Assembly (NCBI GenBank): GCA_963602445.1
Contig: CAVCIY010000026.1
Coordinates: 1,972 to 65,971, forward strand
Direction: 5' to 3'
Length of the DNA: 64,000 bases
Origin: Lachnospiraceae bacterium
GTDB taxonomy: Bacteria; Bacillota; Clostridia; Peptostreptococcales; Anaerovoracaceae
Each line of letters opens with the position of its first letter. Positions within the stretch are counted from its first letter, which is position 1. Under the pieces are notes generated by a model. It was not told where the DNA came from. It saw only the letters and a list, made by a program, of their open reading frames with translations, and ran no database searches. The translations under genes and the position numbers were made by a program. This document shows positions 5,634 through 13,582 of this stretch, piece after piece.

Positions 5634-5760
5634 ACAGCAGCAAATGCAGTCGCATCCGGATTGCAGCAGTGAATGCAGTCGCATCCGAATCACAGCAGTG
5701 AATGCAATCGCATCTATATAGCAATAGCAAATGCAGTCGCATCCGGATCGCAGCAGTGAA
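5634..5760. repeat. Tandem repeat, 29 bp x about 4.4, upstream of the aconitase gene
   Basis: The unit gcagcag/aa tgaatgcagtcgcatccggat(t/c) repeats contiguously with point differences. Confidence 0.75.
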
Positions 5761-5989
5761 AGAATACAATCTTCACTTTTGAATACAAATATACACTTCG
5801 TCTATTTGTATACAATTATATTGCTAAAAAATGTTTTTGTAAATACCGTAAATACAATTAATCGCAATTTTTTTGACTGCTTAAAAAAAGACCCCCGACG
5901 GATATTTGTCGCCGAGGTGCCCCAAAATTACAACTTTTTGGGGCACCTCAGTATTTTTCTCGCCGGAGGTGCTCTTCAAATTTTTATCT

Positions 5990-8647
5990 TTACTTTCTCG
6001 TTATCTTTTCGTTTATTTTTACATTCTTTTCTTGATCGGCAGCAATAAATTCTCTGATCTGTCTGAGAACATCCTCAACTTCTTCTTCAAATTCTCTTGC
6101 CGACACTCTGAGAACGCCTGAGCTTAATGCCGACAGCTGAATAAGGGCGTCAGAAGTCACAACTCGTACATTATAATGAGGTCCTATCGAATCGGCAAGC
6201 TTCTGAATATACATATCACCTGTCTCGCGCTCCTCGGTAAAGACAATATGAATCCCGTTGCGATCAATCTTTTTTCTCTTTCCGCCCGCAACCTTATATG
6301 CGTCAAATACGAGTACAAGCTCACATCCCTTAAATGCTTTGTAATTTTCAAGTTTTTCTATAAGTTTTTCACGCGCATAATCTATGTCTGACTCAGCAAT
6401 TTTCTTAAGACTGCTCCATGAAAATACCATATTATAACCGTCAACAATCAGATATTCTTTCTTGCGTGCGGCAGTTTTTTGCTTTGGAATCTCCTCACTG
6501 TCCGGATCCGGCATGATAATATAAGATTCTTTTTTCCCGGAAGACGCACCTTGGACATCCGACCCGAATTCACGCTTCATAAAATCGTCAAGCACTCTCT
6601 CGTCATAATCATAATTGTTTTGATTTTCTATTGCGGGATGCATCTTTTTTGCCGCGTACGATCCATCAAAAGAGTCCTCCGTTGGCTCGAATTTCTCATC
6701 TTTCGGAAGATCGACACTAAGATGAGTATATTTGTCCACATCATACCACTTGACATTTTGACCTGCGCCATGCGAGCAAAATACCGAATCAGCTGTATTT
6801 GCGATGTCGCCTTGCGCATCATATCCGTAGGATTCTATTATTTTATCCTGATTGTGGCATGGTGCATATCCGCTCACTGTCAGACTTAGGCGGCCTTTTC
6901 CGTGCGAATAAGATGCTACCTCAGAGCTGTATCCTCTAAGCGTGGAAACAGGTGCGCTGCCCGTAATGACAGCCGTTTCCGCAAAACTTTCTTCTATTTC
7001 AAATGTTCCGTGTCTAAGCTTGATATCATTTACTGCTCTGCCGATATGCTCTGATGGAATCTCCAGCCTGAAGCTGTAAAAAGGCTCAAGCAGTGCGGCA
7101 TTTCCTGATGCCGCTGCTTTCATAAGACCTTGTCTTACTGCTCTGTAGACCGCCTGCCTGAAGTCGCCGCCTTCGGTATGCTTCTGATGTGCTCGTCCGG
7201 CGGCGATCGTAATTCTCATATCTGTGATAGGAGCCCCTATCAGCACGCCTTTGTGTGTCTTCTCCGCAAGATGCGTTATGATAAGGCGCTGCCAATTTCT
7301 GTCAAGGAGATCTTCACTGCATGCCGTCCTAAAGACGAGACCGCTTCCCCTGGGAAGAGGCTCCATCAAAAGATGAACCTCCGCATAATGGCGCAGCGGC
7401 TCAAAATGCCCGGCACCTAGCACAGGAGCGGTAATAGTCTCGCGATACATTATTTTGCCGTCAGTAAATTCTATGTCATAATCAAATCTCTCAGCCACGA
7501 TACTCTTCAGGATTTCTATCTGAATGTCTCCCATAATGTCAGCAAAAATCTGCTGAAGCTCTTCATTCCACTTTATATGCAGCATTGGTTCTTCTTCTTC
7601 GAGAATCTTAAGCTTTGACAAAACCGTCCTCACGTCGGCGCCATCAGGGATTTTGATTCTGTATGAAAGAACAGGCAAAGTCGCAGGATCCGACGCTCCG
7701 CTGTCCGTGCCCATACCCATGCCCGGATAAGTTTCTGTAAGGCCAGTCACTGTACAGATTGTCCCGGCTTTTACTGAATCTGCCGTCTCAAATTTATCTC
7801 CGGAATATAATCTTATCTGATTGACCTTTTCTTTCTTTTCCTCGCCCTTCTCATTCCTGTACGTGAGAAGATCCTTTACGCTGAGATTTCCGCCCGTTAC
7901 CCTCAGATGAGTCAGCCTTCCGCCTGTGTTGTCTCTGCCGATCTTAAAAACTCTGGCCCCGAAATCCGGGCCAAAATGCTGCGCAAGCGTATAACTTGAA
8001 ATTGCATCAAGAAAATCTTCTATGCCCTCCATCTTAAGAGCCGACCCCGAATAACACGGAAACATTTTGCGATTCAAAATCATTTCCGCAACCGAAAGAT
8101 CAGCAATCTCACCGCTTTCAAGATATTTTTCCATTATTTCATCGTCGCACAATGCGATATTTTCGTCTCGCTCGTCCGACTCCATGTCTACGCAGCTGTC
8201 TGAAAGATACTTTCTGATATCTTCCATTATTTTGAAATGATCCGCCCCGACAAGATCTGTCTTATTTATAAATATAAAGACCGGCACCTCGTAGCGCCTC
8301 AGAAGATCCCAAACTGTAGATGTATGCGACTGGACTCCATCTGTCGCGCTTATCACGAGAATAGCATAATCCATTACGGCTATCGCCCGCTCCATCTCCG
8401 CTGAAAAATCAGCATGTCCCGGTGTATCTATCAATGTCACCTCAAGGTCGCCGTAAGTAAACCTCGCCTGACTTGAAAATATAGTAATTCCCCTGCTCTT
8501 TTCGAGTAAATGAGTGTCAAGATGAGCATCCTTATGGTCAACTCTTCCAAGCTTTCTAATGGAGCCCGTCATATAAAGCATAGCTTCTGAAAGAGTCGTC
8601 TTTCCGCTGTCCACATGTGCCAAAATACCTGCTGTAATATGTCTCAT
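5990..8647 (-). CDS. Fusion protein: EF-G/TetM-like translational GTPase (N-terminal, about 650 aa) joined to a YacP/Rae1-like NYN ribonuclease domain (C-terminal, about 157 aa, nt 5990-6463)
   Basis: G motifs AHVDSGKTTL, DTPGH and NKTD are present, followed by EF-G-like domains II-V. The C-terminus LIVDGYNM..ELVLVFDAYKV..IHIVFT..VVTSDALIQ matches the pattern of B. subtilis YacP/Rae1. The start is ATG 8647 after gggaggtga. The reading frame is continuous with no stop between the two halves. Confidence 0.8.
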   Translation of the reverse strand: MRHITAGILAHVDSGKTTLSEAMLYMTGSIRKLGRVDHKDAHLDTHLLEKSRGITIFSSQARFTYGDLEVTLIDTPGHADFSAEMERAIAVMDYAILVISATDGVQSHTSTVWDLLRRYEVPVFIFINKTDLVGADHFKIMEDIRKYLSDSCVDMESDERDENIALCDDEIMEKYLESGEIADLSVAEMILNRKMFPCYSGSALKMEGIEDFLDAISSYTLAQHFGPDFGARVFKIGRDNTGGRLTHLRVTGGNLSVKDLLTYRNEKGEEKKEKVNQIRLYSGDKFETADSVKAGTICTVTGLTETYPGMGMGTDSGASDPATLPVLSYRIKIPDGADVRTVLSKLKILEEEEPMLHIKWNEELQQIFADIMGDIQIEILKSIVAERFDYDIEFTDGKIMYRETITAPVLGAGHFEPLRHYAEVHLLMEPLPRGSGLVFRTACSEDLLDRNWQRLIITHLAEKTHKGVLIGAPITDMRITIAAGRAHQKHTEGGDFRQAVYRAVRQGLMKAAASGNAALLEPFYSFRLEIPSEHIGRAVNDIKLRHGTFEIEESFAETAVITGSAPVSTLRGYSSEVASYSHGKGRLSLTVSGYAPCHNQDKIIESYGYDAQGDIANTADSVFCSHGAGQNVKWYDVDKYTHLSVDLPKDEKFEPTEDSFDGSYAAKKMHPAIENQNNYDYDERVLDDFMKREFGSDVQGASSGKKESYIIMPDPDSEEIPKQKTAARKKEYLIVDGYNMVFSWSSLKKIAESDIDYAREKLIEKLENYKAFKGCELVLVFDAYKVAGGKRKKIDRNGIHIVFTEERETGDMYIQKLADSIGPHYNVRVVTSDALIQLSALSSGVLRVSAREFEEEVEDVLRQIREFIAADQEKNVKINEKITRK

Positions 8648-8696
8648 CTCATCACCTCCCTGTATAATAATGCTGCAGTAAGTCAAGTGAAGTCAA

Positions 8697-9320
8697 TCAA
8701 AACGAAATCCATTCCCTGTCATCTGTCTTTGGCGTAATAATATAAATTGCCGGTGCCTTACTCGTCTGATTTATCATTTCTATAAAAGCAGTATGATACT
8801 TCGCGGCAGGAAGCTCGGAAAAAAACTTGCCGAGAGCTTTTGCCTCCAAAGCACCTGCCTCATGTCCTCTGTATACCGTAACCGAAACAATACCGTTGGT
8901 TTTTACAAGCCTAAGCGCCTGTTTTACTGCTCGAAGAGTGGTTTCAAACTCAGTTGTGATTTCTTTATTTTCGCCCGGCATATATCCAAGATTAAACACA
9001 AATGCCGAAATACCGCCCCGCAGCTTGGACAGATGCTTTTCGAGATTCACATGTGAATCAAGGATAAGATTAATTTCCGGTTTTGCGGAACATGCAGGCA
9101 TATTATTTTCTTCAAGAAGTTCGGCCGTCTTTTTCAAAGCCAGAGGCTGTATATCAAATGCAAATACTCTTCCGCTGCTTCCTACTGATTTTGCAAGCTC
9201 AAGCGTGTCAAAGCCGTTTCCCATGGTGCAGTCTGCAACAGTGTCGCCCTCACTTATATATGCCTTTACAATATACATGGCAAAAGACGTTGTCCTGACT
9301 ATAAGATTTTCATTTTTCAT
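8697..9320 (-). CDS. Class I SAM-dependent methyltransferase, YtqB/MnmM-like (putative rRNA/tRNA methylase family)
   Basis: The SAM-binding motif DCTMGNGFDT and the overall pattern resemble the YtqB family. Confidence 0.7.
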   Translation of the reverse strand: MKNENLIVRTTSFAMYIVKAYISEGDTVADCTMGNGFDTLELAKSVGSSGRVFAFDIQPLALKKTAELLEENNMPACSAKPEINLILDSHVNLEKHLSKLRGGISAFVFNLGYMPGENKEITTEFETTLRAVKQALRLVKTNGIVSVTVYRGHEAGALEAKALGKFFSELPAAKYHTAFIEMINQTSKAPAIYIITPKTDDREWISF

Positions 9321-9407: not shown

Positions 9408-10112
9408 TTATTTTAAATTTTTAAGATAAGCGATTTCATTCGAGGTCATCTTTCTGTACATGCCGGGTCTCAGATGAGCCATCTGAAGATTTCCTATCGC
9501 TGTCCTTTCCAGGTGAATCACCTTATGACCGAGAGCTTCAAACATGCGTCTCACCTGTCTGTTTTTTCCCTCGGTAATTTTGATTTTAACCAATGAGCTG
9601 CTGTCAGACTGACTGATAATTTCAACTTCGGCAGGCTTAGTGACATATCCGCCGATATCGATGCCTCTTTCGAGTCTCGCGGCTTCTCTGTTAAGAAAAA
9701 TCCCTGAAACCTCAGCTATATATGTCTTATAAAGCTTAGTCTTCGGGCTCGTCAGCTTATATGCAAGTTCGCCGTCATTTGTCATGATTAGCATGCCTGA
9801 TGTATTATAATCAAGCCTGCCGACCGGATATATGCGCTCCTTTATATCAGGCATGAGGTCCATAACAGATTCTCTTCCGTGCTCATCATCTACTGTGGTG
9901 ACACATCCCACCGGTTTGTTCAGAAGATAATATACCATTCGTTTTTCGGGCTTTATAACCGTGCCGTTTACTGAAACTATGTCGCCCTCCTGCACATCAT
10001 ATCCGCACTCGCATGCCGCACCGTTTACCTTTACCTTTCCGGCATTTATAAATTCATCTGCCTTTCTGCGCGAACATACGCCGCTGTGTGCTATATATTT
10101 ATTTAATCTCAT
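9408..10112 (-). CDS. rluB: Pseudouridine synthase, RsuA/RluB family, with an N-terminal S4 domain
   Basis: The S4 motif is MRLNKYIAHSGVCSRRKADEFI. The catalytic motif is VGRLDYNTSG. Confidence 0.85.
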   Translation of the reverse strand: MRLNKYIAHSGVCSRRKADEFINAGKVKVNGAACECGYDVQEGDIVSVNGTVIKPEKRMVYYLLNKPVGCVTTVDDEHGRESVMDLMPDIKERIYPVGRLDYNTSGMLIMTNDGELAYKLTSPKTKLYKTYIAEVSGIFLNREAARLERGIDIGGYVTKPAEVEIISQSDSSSLVKIKITEGKNRQVRRMFEALGHKVIHLERTAIGNLQMAHLRPGMYRKMTSNEIAYLKNLK

Positions 10113-12475: not shown

Positions 12476-13582
12476 TTACGATGCAAGTTTTTTTATATAT
12501 TCTTTTTTTTCTTTCGGAATCTTCAGGCTGTCTCTGATCTTCCCGAGAGCCATCTTCTCAACAGTCTTAGAAAGAAGTCCTTTTTCAAAATATTTAACTG
12601 CTGAATCATATTGCCTGGATATTGCCTCCGCAAAATACCATGCCTGCATCATCTGAACATAATATTCGTCCGACTTAATTAAAGATACTCTTTTCATAAA
12701 ACTTTCCTCAAATGCGTCATCAAGAAAATGATTCATCAGCATCTTTATACCGAATCGCACAGTGTATATGTCATTTAATGATATCCACTTCAAGGCATAA
12801 GGCAGCAGCTTTTCTTTTTCCTTTTTGAAAACAGGAGGATTCAGACCGTCGCATGTCGCCCAATTATCTACATATTTGAGGAAAGTTTCTGTCATTGTCA
12901 CACAAGTATCGAAATCTTTAATCTCATGAAGTAAAAATCCGTGAAGATTATTTTCTTCATAATATCTGTGCGGCGTTGAATTCAGAAATGTCAGGATATC
13001 ATCCTTTGAAAATTCCGAAAAAATACTTTTGGCATATTTCTTTAAGACCGGGACTCTGACACCTAACACAAGACCTTTATCTACAGTAGGCATGAGCCTG
13101 CTGTGAAAGTCTCTGTAAGACGAATCACTCATGGAAAGAAGAGTCTTTCTTATATTCCATACGGCAGAATCTCTTCTTTCAAGCTCATCATCCGATATAA
13201 AAATGCCCTCGCTAATCATATTGATTTTCTGCGCGCGTGAAAGCTTCTTTATCGCTGCTTCCCTTTTCATTGCGGTGCTTTTGTCCGGGTATATCTCAAG
13301 ATGTACAAGCTTAGCCTCGCCCTTTGCTCTCGTATATTTTGCTCCTTTTCCCTGATTGTGTTTTTTTAGGCGCTTATGGATGTCATTTGTCCATCCCGTA
13401 TACAGGCTGTCATCACCGCATCTGAGCATATATACATAATTGAATTGCTCGTCATCTGATTGTTTTTTTTCAATTCTTTCTTCATCAATTCTTTCTATGA
13501 GTCTTTCTTCAGGTTTTTCAGCATTATCCTGCTCGTCACGCCGCTCGTTATGTCGATTGTTTCCATACTTTTTTTCAGACAT
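12476..13582 (-). CDS. Fusion protein: GIY-YIG nuclease domain (YhbQ/UPF0213-like) joined to an AlkD/AlkC-like DNA alkylation repair (HEAT-repeat) domain
   Basis: The N-terminal half is YVYMLRCGDDSLYTGWTNDIHKRLKKHNQGKGAKYTR..MKREAAIKKLSRAQK, a GIY-YIG pattern. The C-terminal half (YRDFHSRLMPT..LGVRVPVLKKYAK..YYEENNLHGFLL..VDNWATCD) resembles the DNA_alkylation family. Confidence 0.7.
   Translation of the reverse strand: MSEKKYGNNRHNERRDEQDNAEKPEERLIERIDEERIEKKQSDDEQFNYVYMLRCGDDSLYTGWTNDIHKRLKKHNQGKGAKYTRAKGEAKLVHLEIYPDKSTAMKREAAIKKLSRAQKINMISEGIFISDDELERRDSAVWNIRKTLLSMSDSSYRDFHSRLMPTVDKGLVLGVRVPVLKKYAKSIFSEFSKDDILTFLNSTPHRYYEENNLHGFLLHEIKDFDTCVTMTETFLKYVDNWATCDGLNPPVFKKEKEKLLPYALKWISLNDIYTVRFGIKMLMNHFLDDAFEESFMKRVSLIKSDEYYVQMMQAWYFAEAISRQYDSAVKYFEKGLLSKTVEKMALGKIRDSLKIPKEKKEYIKKLAS

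Follow-up and report, generated by a model that had tools for sequence, protein, structure and literature searches.

A translational GTPase fused to a Rae1-type NYN nuclease in Clostridia: a candidate ribosome-docked mRNA endonuclease

The fusion gene and its reading frame

We examined a gene on the reverse strand of contig CAVCIY010000026.1, assembled from a Lachnospiraceae bacterium, within a stretch of 64,000 nt that we call the window; all coordinates are window positions. The gene encodes one protein of 885 amino acids in which a translational GTPase resembling elongation factor G (EF-G) is followed by a flexible tether and an NYN endonuclease domain of the YacP/Rae1 type (Table 1). This architecture was already recorded by Atkinson 2015 (PMC4342817) and Matelska 2017 (PMC5499597), in both cases without functional data, and two recent papers on Rae1 (PMC12407103, PMC13622287) do not mention the fusion. 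What is new here is the status of the GTPase as a subfamily apart from the tetracycline ribosomal protection proteins (RPPs), the distribution of fused and unfused forms, and a reassessment of the genomic neighbourhood.

The open reading frame (ORF) extends over 5990..8686 free of interruptions and would yield 898 amino acids from an upstream TTG or 885 from the ATG at 8647. The ATG is the likely biological start; it lies 49 nt past the stop codon of the preceding gene and has a Shine-Dalgarno sequence in front of it. A preliminary description of this DNA had reported a single uninterrupted frame of 885 codons, and we read the same frame, from that ATG to the TAA at 5990-5992. The motifs quoted in that description (AHVDSGKTTL, DTPGH, NKTD, LIVDGYNM, LVFDAYKV, IHIVFT and VVTSDALIQ) are all found in the translation.

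We considered whether a sequencing error might have joined two ordinary adjacent genes. Five public contigs, each assembled independently (NCBI, ENA and Logan; four are among the matches shown), encode the identical 885-residue protein, and all 120 of the top database matches listed are full-length fused proteins with the same six-domain architecture, at 50-83% identity. Because five contigs encode the same protein and the 120 homologs are fused, the fusion is real and a frameshift or stop artefact is excluded. Further loci, designated by L numbers, were collected in database scans. At L160, in the second scan, the gene appears split because of a run of N, and the calls of a separate NYN gene at L082 and L131 proved on inspection to be alignment overhang.

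The fusion gene is followed by a probable terminator, made up of a perfect GC-rich hairpin of 14 bp (GAGGTGCCCCAAAA...TTTTGGGGCACCTC) at 5914-5949 and a run of seven T residues at 5883-5889. The hairpin separates the gene from the aconitase gene downstream, has flanking T/A runs on both strands and may be a bidirectional terminator. An antisense ORF of 129 amino acids lies over the 3' end of the fusion gene (window ~5731-6391 on the forward strand; L001:9214-9603 on the reverse strand) and is present in the public gene calls on all four contigs of the species. Antisense ORFs of a similar family face the NYN region at 67 of 80 loci, and codon bias has probably produced them as shadow ORFs.

Table 1. 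Features of the fusion gene, its protein domains and its neighbours
Feature	Position	Strand	Basis and remarks
Probable transcription terminator region	5883..5949	-	Terminator scan and direct reading; hairpin, then T-run on the gene's strand
GTPase-NYN fusion, complete coding sequence	5990..8647	-	ORF list and direct reading of start and stop; 885 aa, TAA stop 5990-5992
YacP/Rae1-type NYN endonuclease domain, aa 731-885	5993..6457	-	Pfam NYN_YacP 733-881
Flexible tether, aa 646-730, 85 aa, predicted disordered	6458..6712	-	AlphaFold2 predicted local distance difference test (pLDDT) <50 for 649-686 and 693-728
Short conserved helix motif in tether, aa 681-697	6557..6607	-	Here YDERVLDDFMKREFGSD; family consensus DKELE.I(M/F).R.(F/Y)G
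Family-specific C-terminal element, aa 597-645, ~50 aa	6713..6859	-	Conservation; replaces TetM C-terminal helix
Domain V, aa 519-600	6848..7093	-	Pfam EFG_C E=1e-17
Domain IV, aa 397-511	7115..7459	-	Pfam EFG_IV; subfamily-specific tip loops GHFEPLRHYAEV, RNWQR, AHQKHTEGGDF
Domain IV loop III tip, A486-F496 (AHQKHTEGGDF)	7160..7192	-	Alignment with Tet(M)/(O)/(W)/B(P); position of TetM YSPVS/Pro509
Domains II (aa 229-305) and III (aa 325-394)	7466..7963	-	Pfam EF-G_D2 and EFG_III above cut-off; confident in AlphaFold2
G domain, aa 2-219	7991..8644	-	Pfam GTP_EFTU E=1e-52; without large EF-G-type G' insertion
Shine-Dalgarno GGGAGG	8655..8660	-	Direct reading of strand; 7 nt 5' of ATG at 8647
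MnmM (formerly YtqB) tRNA U34 methyltransferase	8697..9320	-	NCBIfam equivalog 188 bits vs cut-off 135; context only
RsuA/RluB/RluF-family pseudouridine synthase	9408..10112	-	Pfam and NCBIfam; context only
YlmH-type genes	L067:6356-7102, L086:6397-7140, L089:6358-7104, L038:5735-6478, L053:6438-7193, L047:5796-6401, L064:6193-7113		Directly downstream of fusion

The GTPase body

A Pfam search placed all six domains of the protein above their gathering scores. The five in the N-terminal half, together with the fold predicted by AlphaFold2, confirm the multi-domain EF-G-like GTPase that the preliminary description had recognized. The G domain carries G1 (AHVDSGKTT), switch I (RGITI), G3 (DTPGH, with the catalytic His78), G4 (NKTD) and G5 (GSALK), and in an alignment of 120 family members, from which the conservation figures given here are taken, K16, T17, T55, H78, K129 and D131 are invariant (120/120). 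Its alignment with TetM is continuous, whereas that with EF-G is split around the G' region. The tip-loop residues of domain IV are likewise invariant and differ from the RPP loops HIEVPPNPFWAS and GLYYSPVSTPADF. Residues K489-F496 are identical in 120/120 homologs, and HTEGGDF is found in 127/150 cluster representatives. Within one homolog, P0042 (1040 amino acids, an ENA metagenome protein), a segment of ~117 residues that covers the end of domain IV together with domain V is exactly duplicated, so that the repeat RLVLTHLEEKEH...SLMRGYQ is present twice; the cause is an assembly artefact or else a tandem duplication of recent date.

Domain V is followed by the family-specific C-terminal element, with the consensus GY.PC...GYDPE.D..NT.DSVFC.HGAG..V.W..V..Y.H. 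A CCHH metal site may be formed within it by the invariant residues C597, C624 and H642 together with H626, which shows at least 90% conservation. Unfused homologs of the GTPase also carry the element and end just past it. No known domain and no Pfam or PDB match was obtained for residues 595-735.

AlphaFold2 was run on a 76-sequence alignment and returned a mean pLDDT of 79.7. Both the EF-G-like body (residues 1-645) and the NYN domain (731-885) were predicted confidently, with the C-terminal element as a confident small helix-hairpin-helix fold, and a Foldseek search with the body gave EF-G structures as top matches (E ~1e-53). The N-terminal 645 residues constitute a complete, apparently active translational GTPase, and by their residues both enzymatic halves look active. 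The family is under strong purifying conservation.

Relation to tetracycline ribosomal protection proteins and EF-G

The GTPase had been described beforehand as EF-G/TetM-like, which holds for its five-domain body and fails for TetM proper. The best NCBIfam model was tet_protect (NF012153), which scored 407 bits where the curated cut-off is 775; NF033148 gave 272 against 1100, and the EF-G model TIGR00484 gave 293 against 659. Identity to Tet(M), Tet(O), Tet(W) and Tet(S) is ~28%, and tblastn alignments to tet genes end at query residues 594-596. The domain order G-II-III-IV-V without a large G' is shared with Tet(M) and Tet(O), and the alignment to TetM is end to end (query 1-594 with TetM 1-610).

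The loops that would reach the decoding centre are different. Loop III reads GRAHQKHTEGGDF in the window protein; the corresponding segment of Tet(M)/(O)/(W) is GLYYSPVSTPADF, and that of TetB(P) is FFSPASTPADF. Across the family it has the form GRAH.KHTEGGDF, and the YYSPVSTPADF of RPPs, with its Pro509, is not present. In TetM, Pro509 (within Y-S-P-V-S, Tyr506-Val510) sits in the tetracycline site and displaces the drug (PMC8161019). Loop I, aligned with Tet(M), Tet(O), Tet(W) and TetB(P), is HIEVPPNPFWAS in RPPs and GHFEPLRHYAEV in the fusion family, and the C-terminal RPP helix ...QPRRPNSRIDKVRYMF is replaced in the fusion family by the 50-residue element. H487 aligns with the tip histidine of the GSYHEVDSS loop of Thermus thermophilus EF-G, where genuine RPPs have Tyr, and the tip is therefore more EF-G-like than Tet-like. 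With EF-G and the EF-G2-type paralogs the protein shares the five-domain fold, the G motifs and the catalytic His, but it differs from them in having no G' insertion, in an identity of only ~23-28%, and in its extra C-terminal element, tether and nuclease. Judged by these sequence features, the GTPase is an EF-G/Tet-like subfamily of its own, marked by an invariant KHTEGGDF at the tip of domain IV.

Many homologs are named 'TetM/TetW/TetO/TetS family' in NCBI records, and Atkinson 2015 (PMC4342817) suggested a tetracycline-resistance RPP with an added RNase. We consider such a protein very improbable, even though tet_protect is the best NCBIfam match and the G domain has no large G' insertion, as in TetM. 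The sub-cut-off score and low identity, the replacement of YYSPVSTPADF by AH.KHTEGGDF with loss of Pro509, and the divergent loop I and C-terminus rule out a bona fide TetM. Because the RPP score, loops and C-terminal helix are not found, the TetM-type names are probably over-annotations. Unlike Tet(M) and Tet(O), the fusion carries a nuclease and lies on chromosomes or large non-mobilizable replicons without transposon, resistance or efflux partners, and its phylogeny tracks taxonomy rather than the patchy horizontal transfer of RPPs. A mobile or plasmid-borne gene was also considered and rejected, the 'plasmid' matches being non-mobilizable replicons of 150-520 kb, some with housekeeping genes.

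The nuclease domain and its comparison with Rae1

The C-terminal domain matches NYN_YacP (PF05991) at 145 bits against a cut-off of 24.6 (E=2e-42), and also the sequence of the Bacillus subtilis YacP/Rae1 crystal structures 5MQ8/5MQ9 (E=4e-25), in agreement with the NYN/YacP identity proposed earlier. Each of the four acidic residues of its active site (D736, D782, D811 and D833) is unchanged in 119-120 of 120 homologs. Counted along the HMMER alignment, D736 corresponds to Rae1 D7 and D811 to Rae1 D81, so that the catalytic Asp residues sought by comparison with Rae1 are present; D7N D81N is the published catalytic-dead mutant of Rae1 (PMC10351889).

Rae1 and the fused domain are 38% identical over 133-137 residues, share all four acidic residues, and are both expected to act on ribosome-bound mRNA. 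They differ in setting. Rae1 is a single domain of ~170-180 amino acids encoded directly after rlmB (yacO) and usually before sigH, whereas the fused NYN domain is the C-terminus of an 885-residue GTPase encoded between mnmM and the aconitase gene. The canonical rlmB-yacP-sigH arrangement was seen in Acetoanaerobium and Clostridioides difficile, and adjacency to rlmB in Paenibacillus, Listeria and Bacillus records. Stand-alone YacPs (L167-L246) further share a C-terminal tail, RN.LE.RLD.E.L.KLE.IRR, that the fused proteins do not have.

Cleavage of mRNA by Rae1 depends on translation (PMC10351889, PMC12407103) and takes place at the trailing edge of the ribosome, not in the A site as was proposed earlier (PMC12407103). 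Rae1 was recently placed at the centre of CART, a Gram-positive pathway for the rescue of collided ribosomes, in which it yields truncated mRNAs that enable rescue by transfer-messenger RNA (tmRNA); its route of recruitment to the ribosome is unexplained, and there is no ribosome-bound structure (PMC13622287).

The tether

The segment joining the two halves varies in length, with 76-208 residues (median 107) between the C-terminal element and the DGYN of the nuclease among cluster representatives. AlphaFold2 predicts a helix at 683-694, at low confidence, and disorder in the rest of 649-728. In the conserved motif around this helix, conservation is 90% or higher at E685, L686, I689 and R692, and G695 does not vary. 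The preliminary description spoke of an acidic linker of about 80 residues. In the window protein it is 85 residues long and mildly acidic (20 D+E, 14 K+R), but the linkers are net basic family-wide (K+R 23%, D+E 14%) and acidity is not a family trait. As the tether is at least 76 residues long throughout and is predicted to be disordered, a mechanism in which the nuclease reaches over the ribosome fits, and rigid insertion into the A site does not.

The tether helix, DKELE.I(M/F).R.FG, was compared with the tail of stand-alone Rae1, and the likeness is too loose for a claim of homology. The helix may be a partner-binding peptide equivalent to the YacP tail.

Distribution and phylogeny

The peptides GHFEPLRH and KHTEGGDF, which are specific to the subfamily, were used to scan genomes and located it in at least 596 confirmed species genomes. 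Among the best 80 loci 75 were fused, two were cut by contig ends, one (L082) was the alignment overhang described above, and two, labelled Bifidobacterium, were unfused. When unfused sequences served as anchors in a second scan, 31 further unfused loci emerged, none with an NYN gene within 5 kb: 12 in Lactobacillaceae, five in Bifidobacterium, 13 in Collinsella/Coriobacteriaceae and one (L158) grouped by the tree with Coriobacteriia. All Clostridia-like loci extending to the 3' end of the gene are fused, L082, L131 and L160 being artefact or gap and two more loci being cut by contig ends. Unfused members were also found on Lactobacillus salivarius megaplasmids and in Subdoligranulum variabile, L. 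fermentum and Paenibacillus cellulosilyticus. In a representative library of 1.84 billion proteins, 507 clusters (50% identity) match the subfamily region at E<=1e-30; at least 73 of the best 150 are fused and ~25-38 unfused.

In a neighbour-joining tree of the GTPase body, rooted on RPPs and computed without bootstrap, all fused proteins form one clade of 95, and the unfused proteins of Lactobacillaceae and of Bifidobacterium with Coriobacteriia fall outside it. The single clade indicates one ancient fusion. From its agreement with taxonomy the gene looks vertically inherited.

Several individual loci deserve mention. The S. variabile protein (L019, OY725836.1, Oscillospiraceae) is unfused, stops immediately past the C-terminal element and takes the basal position in the subfamily tree, apart from other Clostridia; a long-branch or GC effect, horizontal transfer and an ancestral unfused state are all possible. 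Clostridia-type fusions at L043, L046 and L075 lie on contigs of metagenome-assembled genomes labelled Prevotella sp., Bacteroides sp. and Alloprevotella sp., most likely by mis-binning rather than through a transfer to Bacteroidota. On megaplasmid pMP118 of L. salivarius UCC118 (L013:5529-7920), the unfused GTPase LSL_RS10690, annotated as TetM-family resistance, adjoins a divergent rpsN (a paralog of ribosomal protein S14) and a 'putative metal homeostasis protein', and at least 33 L. salivarius megaplasmid records carry such a gene. A link of this GTPase to zinc-dependent ribosome remodelling is possible.

The preliminary description regarded the fusion as a Rosetta-stone link and called for a survey of fused and separate forms. 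The pattern is genuine: the two parts are separate genes in some lineages and one polypeptide in Clostridia. In Paenibacillus a single replicon of 2.7 Mb holds both an unfused GTPase and, next to rlmB, an NYN/yacP-like gene. The separation in Collinsella is at genus level, C. aerofaciens having an NYN gene ~5 kb from nusG and other Collinsella genomes carrying the unfused GTPase. That the two parts were joined merely by loss of an intergenic stop, giving shared expression without mechanistic coupling, strikes us as improbable. Such a fusion of convenience would suit the independent existence of both parts elsewhere, the disorder of the tether and the lack of predicted contact between the domains; it fits poorly with a fusion kept in every classifiable Clostridia-like locus down to ~50% identity, with a tether that has its own conserved motif, and with two partners that both act on the translating ribosome.

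The occurrence of stand-alone yacP hints that the fusion may replace stand-alone Rae1. None of the 102 fusion-bearing assemblies contains any of the best 80 stand-alone yacP loci, which come from Peptostreptococcaceae, Filifactoraceae, Tissierellia, Clostridiaceae and others, and in the window there is no second NYN gene besides the fusion. In fusion-bearing Monoglobus, examined with nusG and rlmB as anchors, the gene after rlmB is unrelated and is not yacP, and the fused NYN is the sole NYN in the records searched, which cover the genome only in part.

Genomic neighbourhood

Two genes for RNA-modifying enzymes lie directly upstream on the same strand (Table 1) and are possibly co-transcribed. 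The identities given to them in the preliminary description, a YtqB-like methyltransferase and an RluB-like pseudouridine synthase, are correct; the RNA-centred setting that it saw in them is not conserved. Neighbour order is kept in a sister Anaerovoracaceae species (L005, 83% identical), and genes for MnmM and the pseudouridine synthase occur within 5 kb at 0/80 other loci. A conserved RNA-centred operon is thereby ruled out, the MnmM, pseudouridine synthase and aconitase neighbours being confined to the sister species, and the first two carry little functional weight because they are absent from 80/80 other loci.

Clustering of flanking ORFs at 80 fused and 34 unfused loci revealed no broadly conserved partner, and at the 34 unfused loci no partner of the GTPase beyond within-genus synteny. 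The only recurrent partner is a YlmH-type gene (PF17774 YlmH_RBD plus S4), which lies directly 3' of the fusion in 7/80 loci and overlaps or abuts its stop codon, with overlap in three of the seven. All seven loci belong to one Oscillospirales-like subclade of 22 members, and their YlmH proteins are 28-33% identical to the L067 copy. YlmH is a factor of ribosome-associated quality control (RQC) in B. subtilis (PMC11317155), and its recurrence beside the fusion is a weak but independent pointer to ribosome rescue.

The same surveys bear on whether the protein might be a toxin for regulated translation shutdown or an anti-phage effector, its nuclease being let loose on RNA bound to the ribosome, under stress or upon infection, so as to arrest translation globally; it would then be no housekeeping rescue factor. 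Toxins do exist among mRNases that depend on the ribosome, RelE being an example (cited in PMC10351889), a defence role of Rae1 against phage mRNAs is a speculation of the CART preprint (PMC13622287), and one Agathobacter locus adjoins a BrnT/CopG toxin-antitoxin pair. Against such a role, no PADLOC defence model was matched, the 80 fused and 34 unfused loci have no conserved antitoxin, immunity or defence-island neighbour, and the fusion is a single clade tracking taxonomy in a family of at least 596 species genomes. The phage collection searched holds no fused copy, its 11 NYN matches covering the NYN part of the query alone. We rate the chance of a toxin or defence function as slim.

A nuclease directed at the ribosome itself would also draw on the neighbourhood. 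The GTPase would dock on the 70S ribosome or its subunits and the NYN domain would cut rRNA or tRNA, in rRNA maturation or assembly quality control, or in ribosome decommissioning under stress or sporulation. An older prediction had YacP in rRNA/tRNA processing, Atkinson 2015 raised the idea of an 'rRNA RNase' (PMC4342817), and Matelska 2017 read the yacP context as involvement in an rRNA/tRNA processome (PMC5499597). In the stand-alone loci that we looked at, yacP lies beside rlmB and, in C. difficile, also near the gene for mini-RNase III; the fusion follows RNA-modification genes in the window and the sister species, and the unfused L. salivarius member adjoins the S14 paralog. In TetM the C-terminal helix lies at h44, adjoining the decoding centre, and by analogy the tether would begin near 16S rRNA. 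We nevertheless think an rRNA- or tRNA-directed role unlikely: the upstream RNA-modification genes are missing from the 80 other loci, flanking-ORF clustering gave no conserved linkage to rRNA operons or assembly factors, and Rae1, the characterised member of the nuclease family, cleaves mRNAs in a way that depends on translation (PMC10351889, PMC12407103).

Elsewhere in the window, at 12476-13582 on the reverse strand, an ORF of 368 amino acids joins a GIY-YIG nuclease (residues 48-121) to an AlkD-like DNA_alkylation domain (residues 144-345) and is thus a second nuclease fusion.

Proposed function

By analogy with Rae1, the fusion may be a GTP-gated, ribosome-docked form of this nuclease that cuts mRNA on stalled or collided ribosomes, a proposal to which we give about an even chance. 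We infer its ribosome binding, its mRNA substrate, its stalled or collided trigger and its GTP gating. The GTPase would bind the factor site of the ribosome and probe the decoding centre with its invariant AH.KHTEGGDF tip, supplying the affinity and sensing of ribosome state that free Rae1 would obtain in some other way. The disordered tether of ~75-210 residues would let the NYN nuclease reach mRNA on the same or a neighbouring ribosome and, on the model of Rae1, cut it either at a stalled ribosome's trailing edge or in the stretch between ribosomes that have collided. The cut would create a non-stop end, upstream ribosomes being handed to tmRNA or RQC, and GTP hydrolysis would time or end the encounter and release the factor.

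The preliminary description had suggested delivery of the RNase to the ribosome by a GTPase of a family that docks at the A site. Delivery to the A site itself is not upheld; Rae1 cuts at the trailing edge, and a tether of 76-208 residues is needed in any model. From its wider suggestion of a GTPase-guided RNase on the ribosome, the fusion, the intact residues and the Rosetta-stone pattern stand, whereas the TetM identity, the acidic linker, the RNA operon and A-site delivery do not.

Two speculative geometries can be envisaged. The factor could sit on the stalled ribosome, whose A site is vacant or slowly filled, with the nuclease reaching round the 30S subunit to the mRNA exit. Alternatively it could sit on the trailing ribosome of a collided pair, whose mRNA entry abuts the exit of the leading ribosome, the side on which Rae1 cuts. 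A trailing collided ribosome is trapped in a rotated pre-translocation state and would thus be an EF-G-type substrate, and we slightly favour the second geometry because the tip histidine is EF-G-like.

Several points weigh against a ribosome-docked mRNase. The factor-binding site is far from the mRNA exit side where Rae1 cuts, and the tether permits reach, nothing more; AlphaFold2 does not dock the NYN domain on the GTPase body and predicts no interdomain contact. The substrate could be rRNA or tRNA instead of mRNA. Acetoanaerobium, of the same order as the window organism, has rlmB-yacP-sigH-tuf and no such GTPase on a record of 2.63 Mb; since its YacP stands alone, the GTPase is not a general requirement of Rae1. 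To our knowledge the subfamily is absent from B. subtilis, whose Rae1 is not reported to need such a GTPase. Because the GTPase occurs alone in many lineages, it must also have a nuclease-independent function. The partial coverage of Monoglobus bears on whether the fusion is the only Rae1 there. Finally, our literature search found no functional study of the fusion, as the preliminary description had supposed.

A broader version of the proposal extends to the unfused proteins. The KHTEGGDF-type GTPase, fused or free, would be a dedicated sensor of stalled or collided ribosomes that recruits and licenses Rae1-type nucleases; the fusion would be the only Rae1 in its Clostridia clade, and in Lactobacillaceae, Bifidobacterium, Coriobacteriia and Paenibacillus the free GTPase would act in trans with free Rae1. 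We find this doubtful. An interaction in trans might use the conserved C-terminal tail of Rae1.

The proposed job, cutting mRNA at or between stalled and collided ribosomes, is that of Escherichia coli SmrB, the SMR domain of MutS2 and yeast Cue2 (PMC13622287). All three are recruited to collided ribosomes, where SmrB and Cue2 cut the mRNA; the SMR domain of B. subtilis MutS2 is without the nuclease residues. Their SMR nuclease fold is unrelated to the NYN/PIN-like fold of the fusion, and it is SMR, UBA or CUE modules, no translational GTPase, with which they recognise the interface of the disome. In eukaryotes and archaea, the GTPase of the Pelota/Dom34-Hbs1 system and its relatives escorts a surveillance module to the factor site of a stalled ribosome and releases that module on GTP hydrolysis. 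The fusion would resemble it as a translational GTPase that brings a surveillance module to a stalled ribosome. It differs in that Hbs1 is EF-Tu/eEF1A-like and works with a separate, non-nucleolytic partner in subunit splitting, whereas the fusion is EF-G-like and bears its nuclease covalently.

Implications

Among the Lachnospiraceae and Oscillospiraceae of the human gut the family is very common, and its annotation as a gene for tetracycline resistance is a widespread error. Resistome counts are therefore inflated, and showing that the RPP determinants are absent has a value of its own. As far as we found, the unfused GTPase of the KHTEGGDF type in lactobacilli and bifidobacteria is itself an uncharacterised translation factor.

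A Rae1 domain held covalently on a factor-site GTPase is a strong hint to the side of the ribosome from which Rae1 is recruited. It also provides a practical handle, as the GTPase could be locked on ribosomes with guanosine 5'-(β,γ-imido)triphosphate (GDPNP) or a His78 mutation for cryo-electron microscopy and cleavage mapping. If the sensor-GTPase reading is true, it would answer how Rae1 finds its ribosomes, and the KHTEGGDF GTPase with Rae1 would be a bacterial counterpart of GTPase-escorted mRNA surveillance. An abundant, mis-annotated factor would thus offer an experimental route to how Rae1-type nucleases engage stalled ribosomes.

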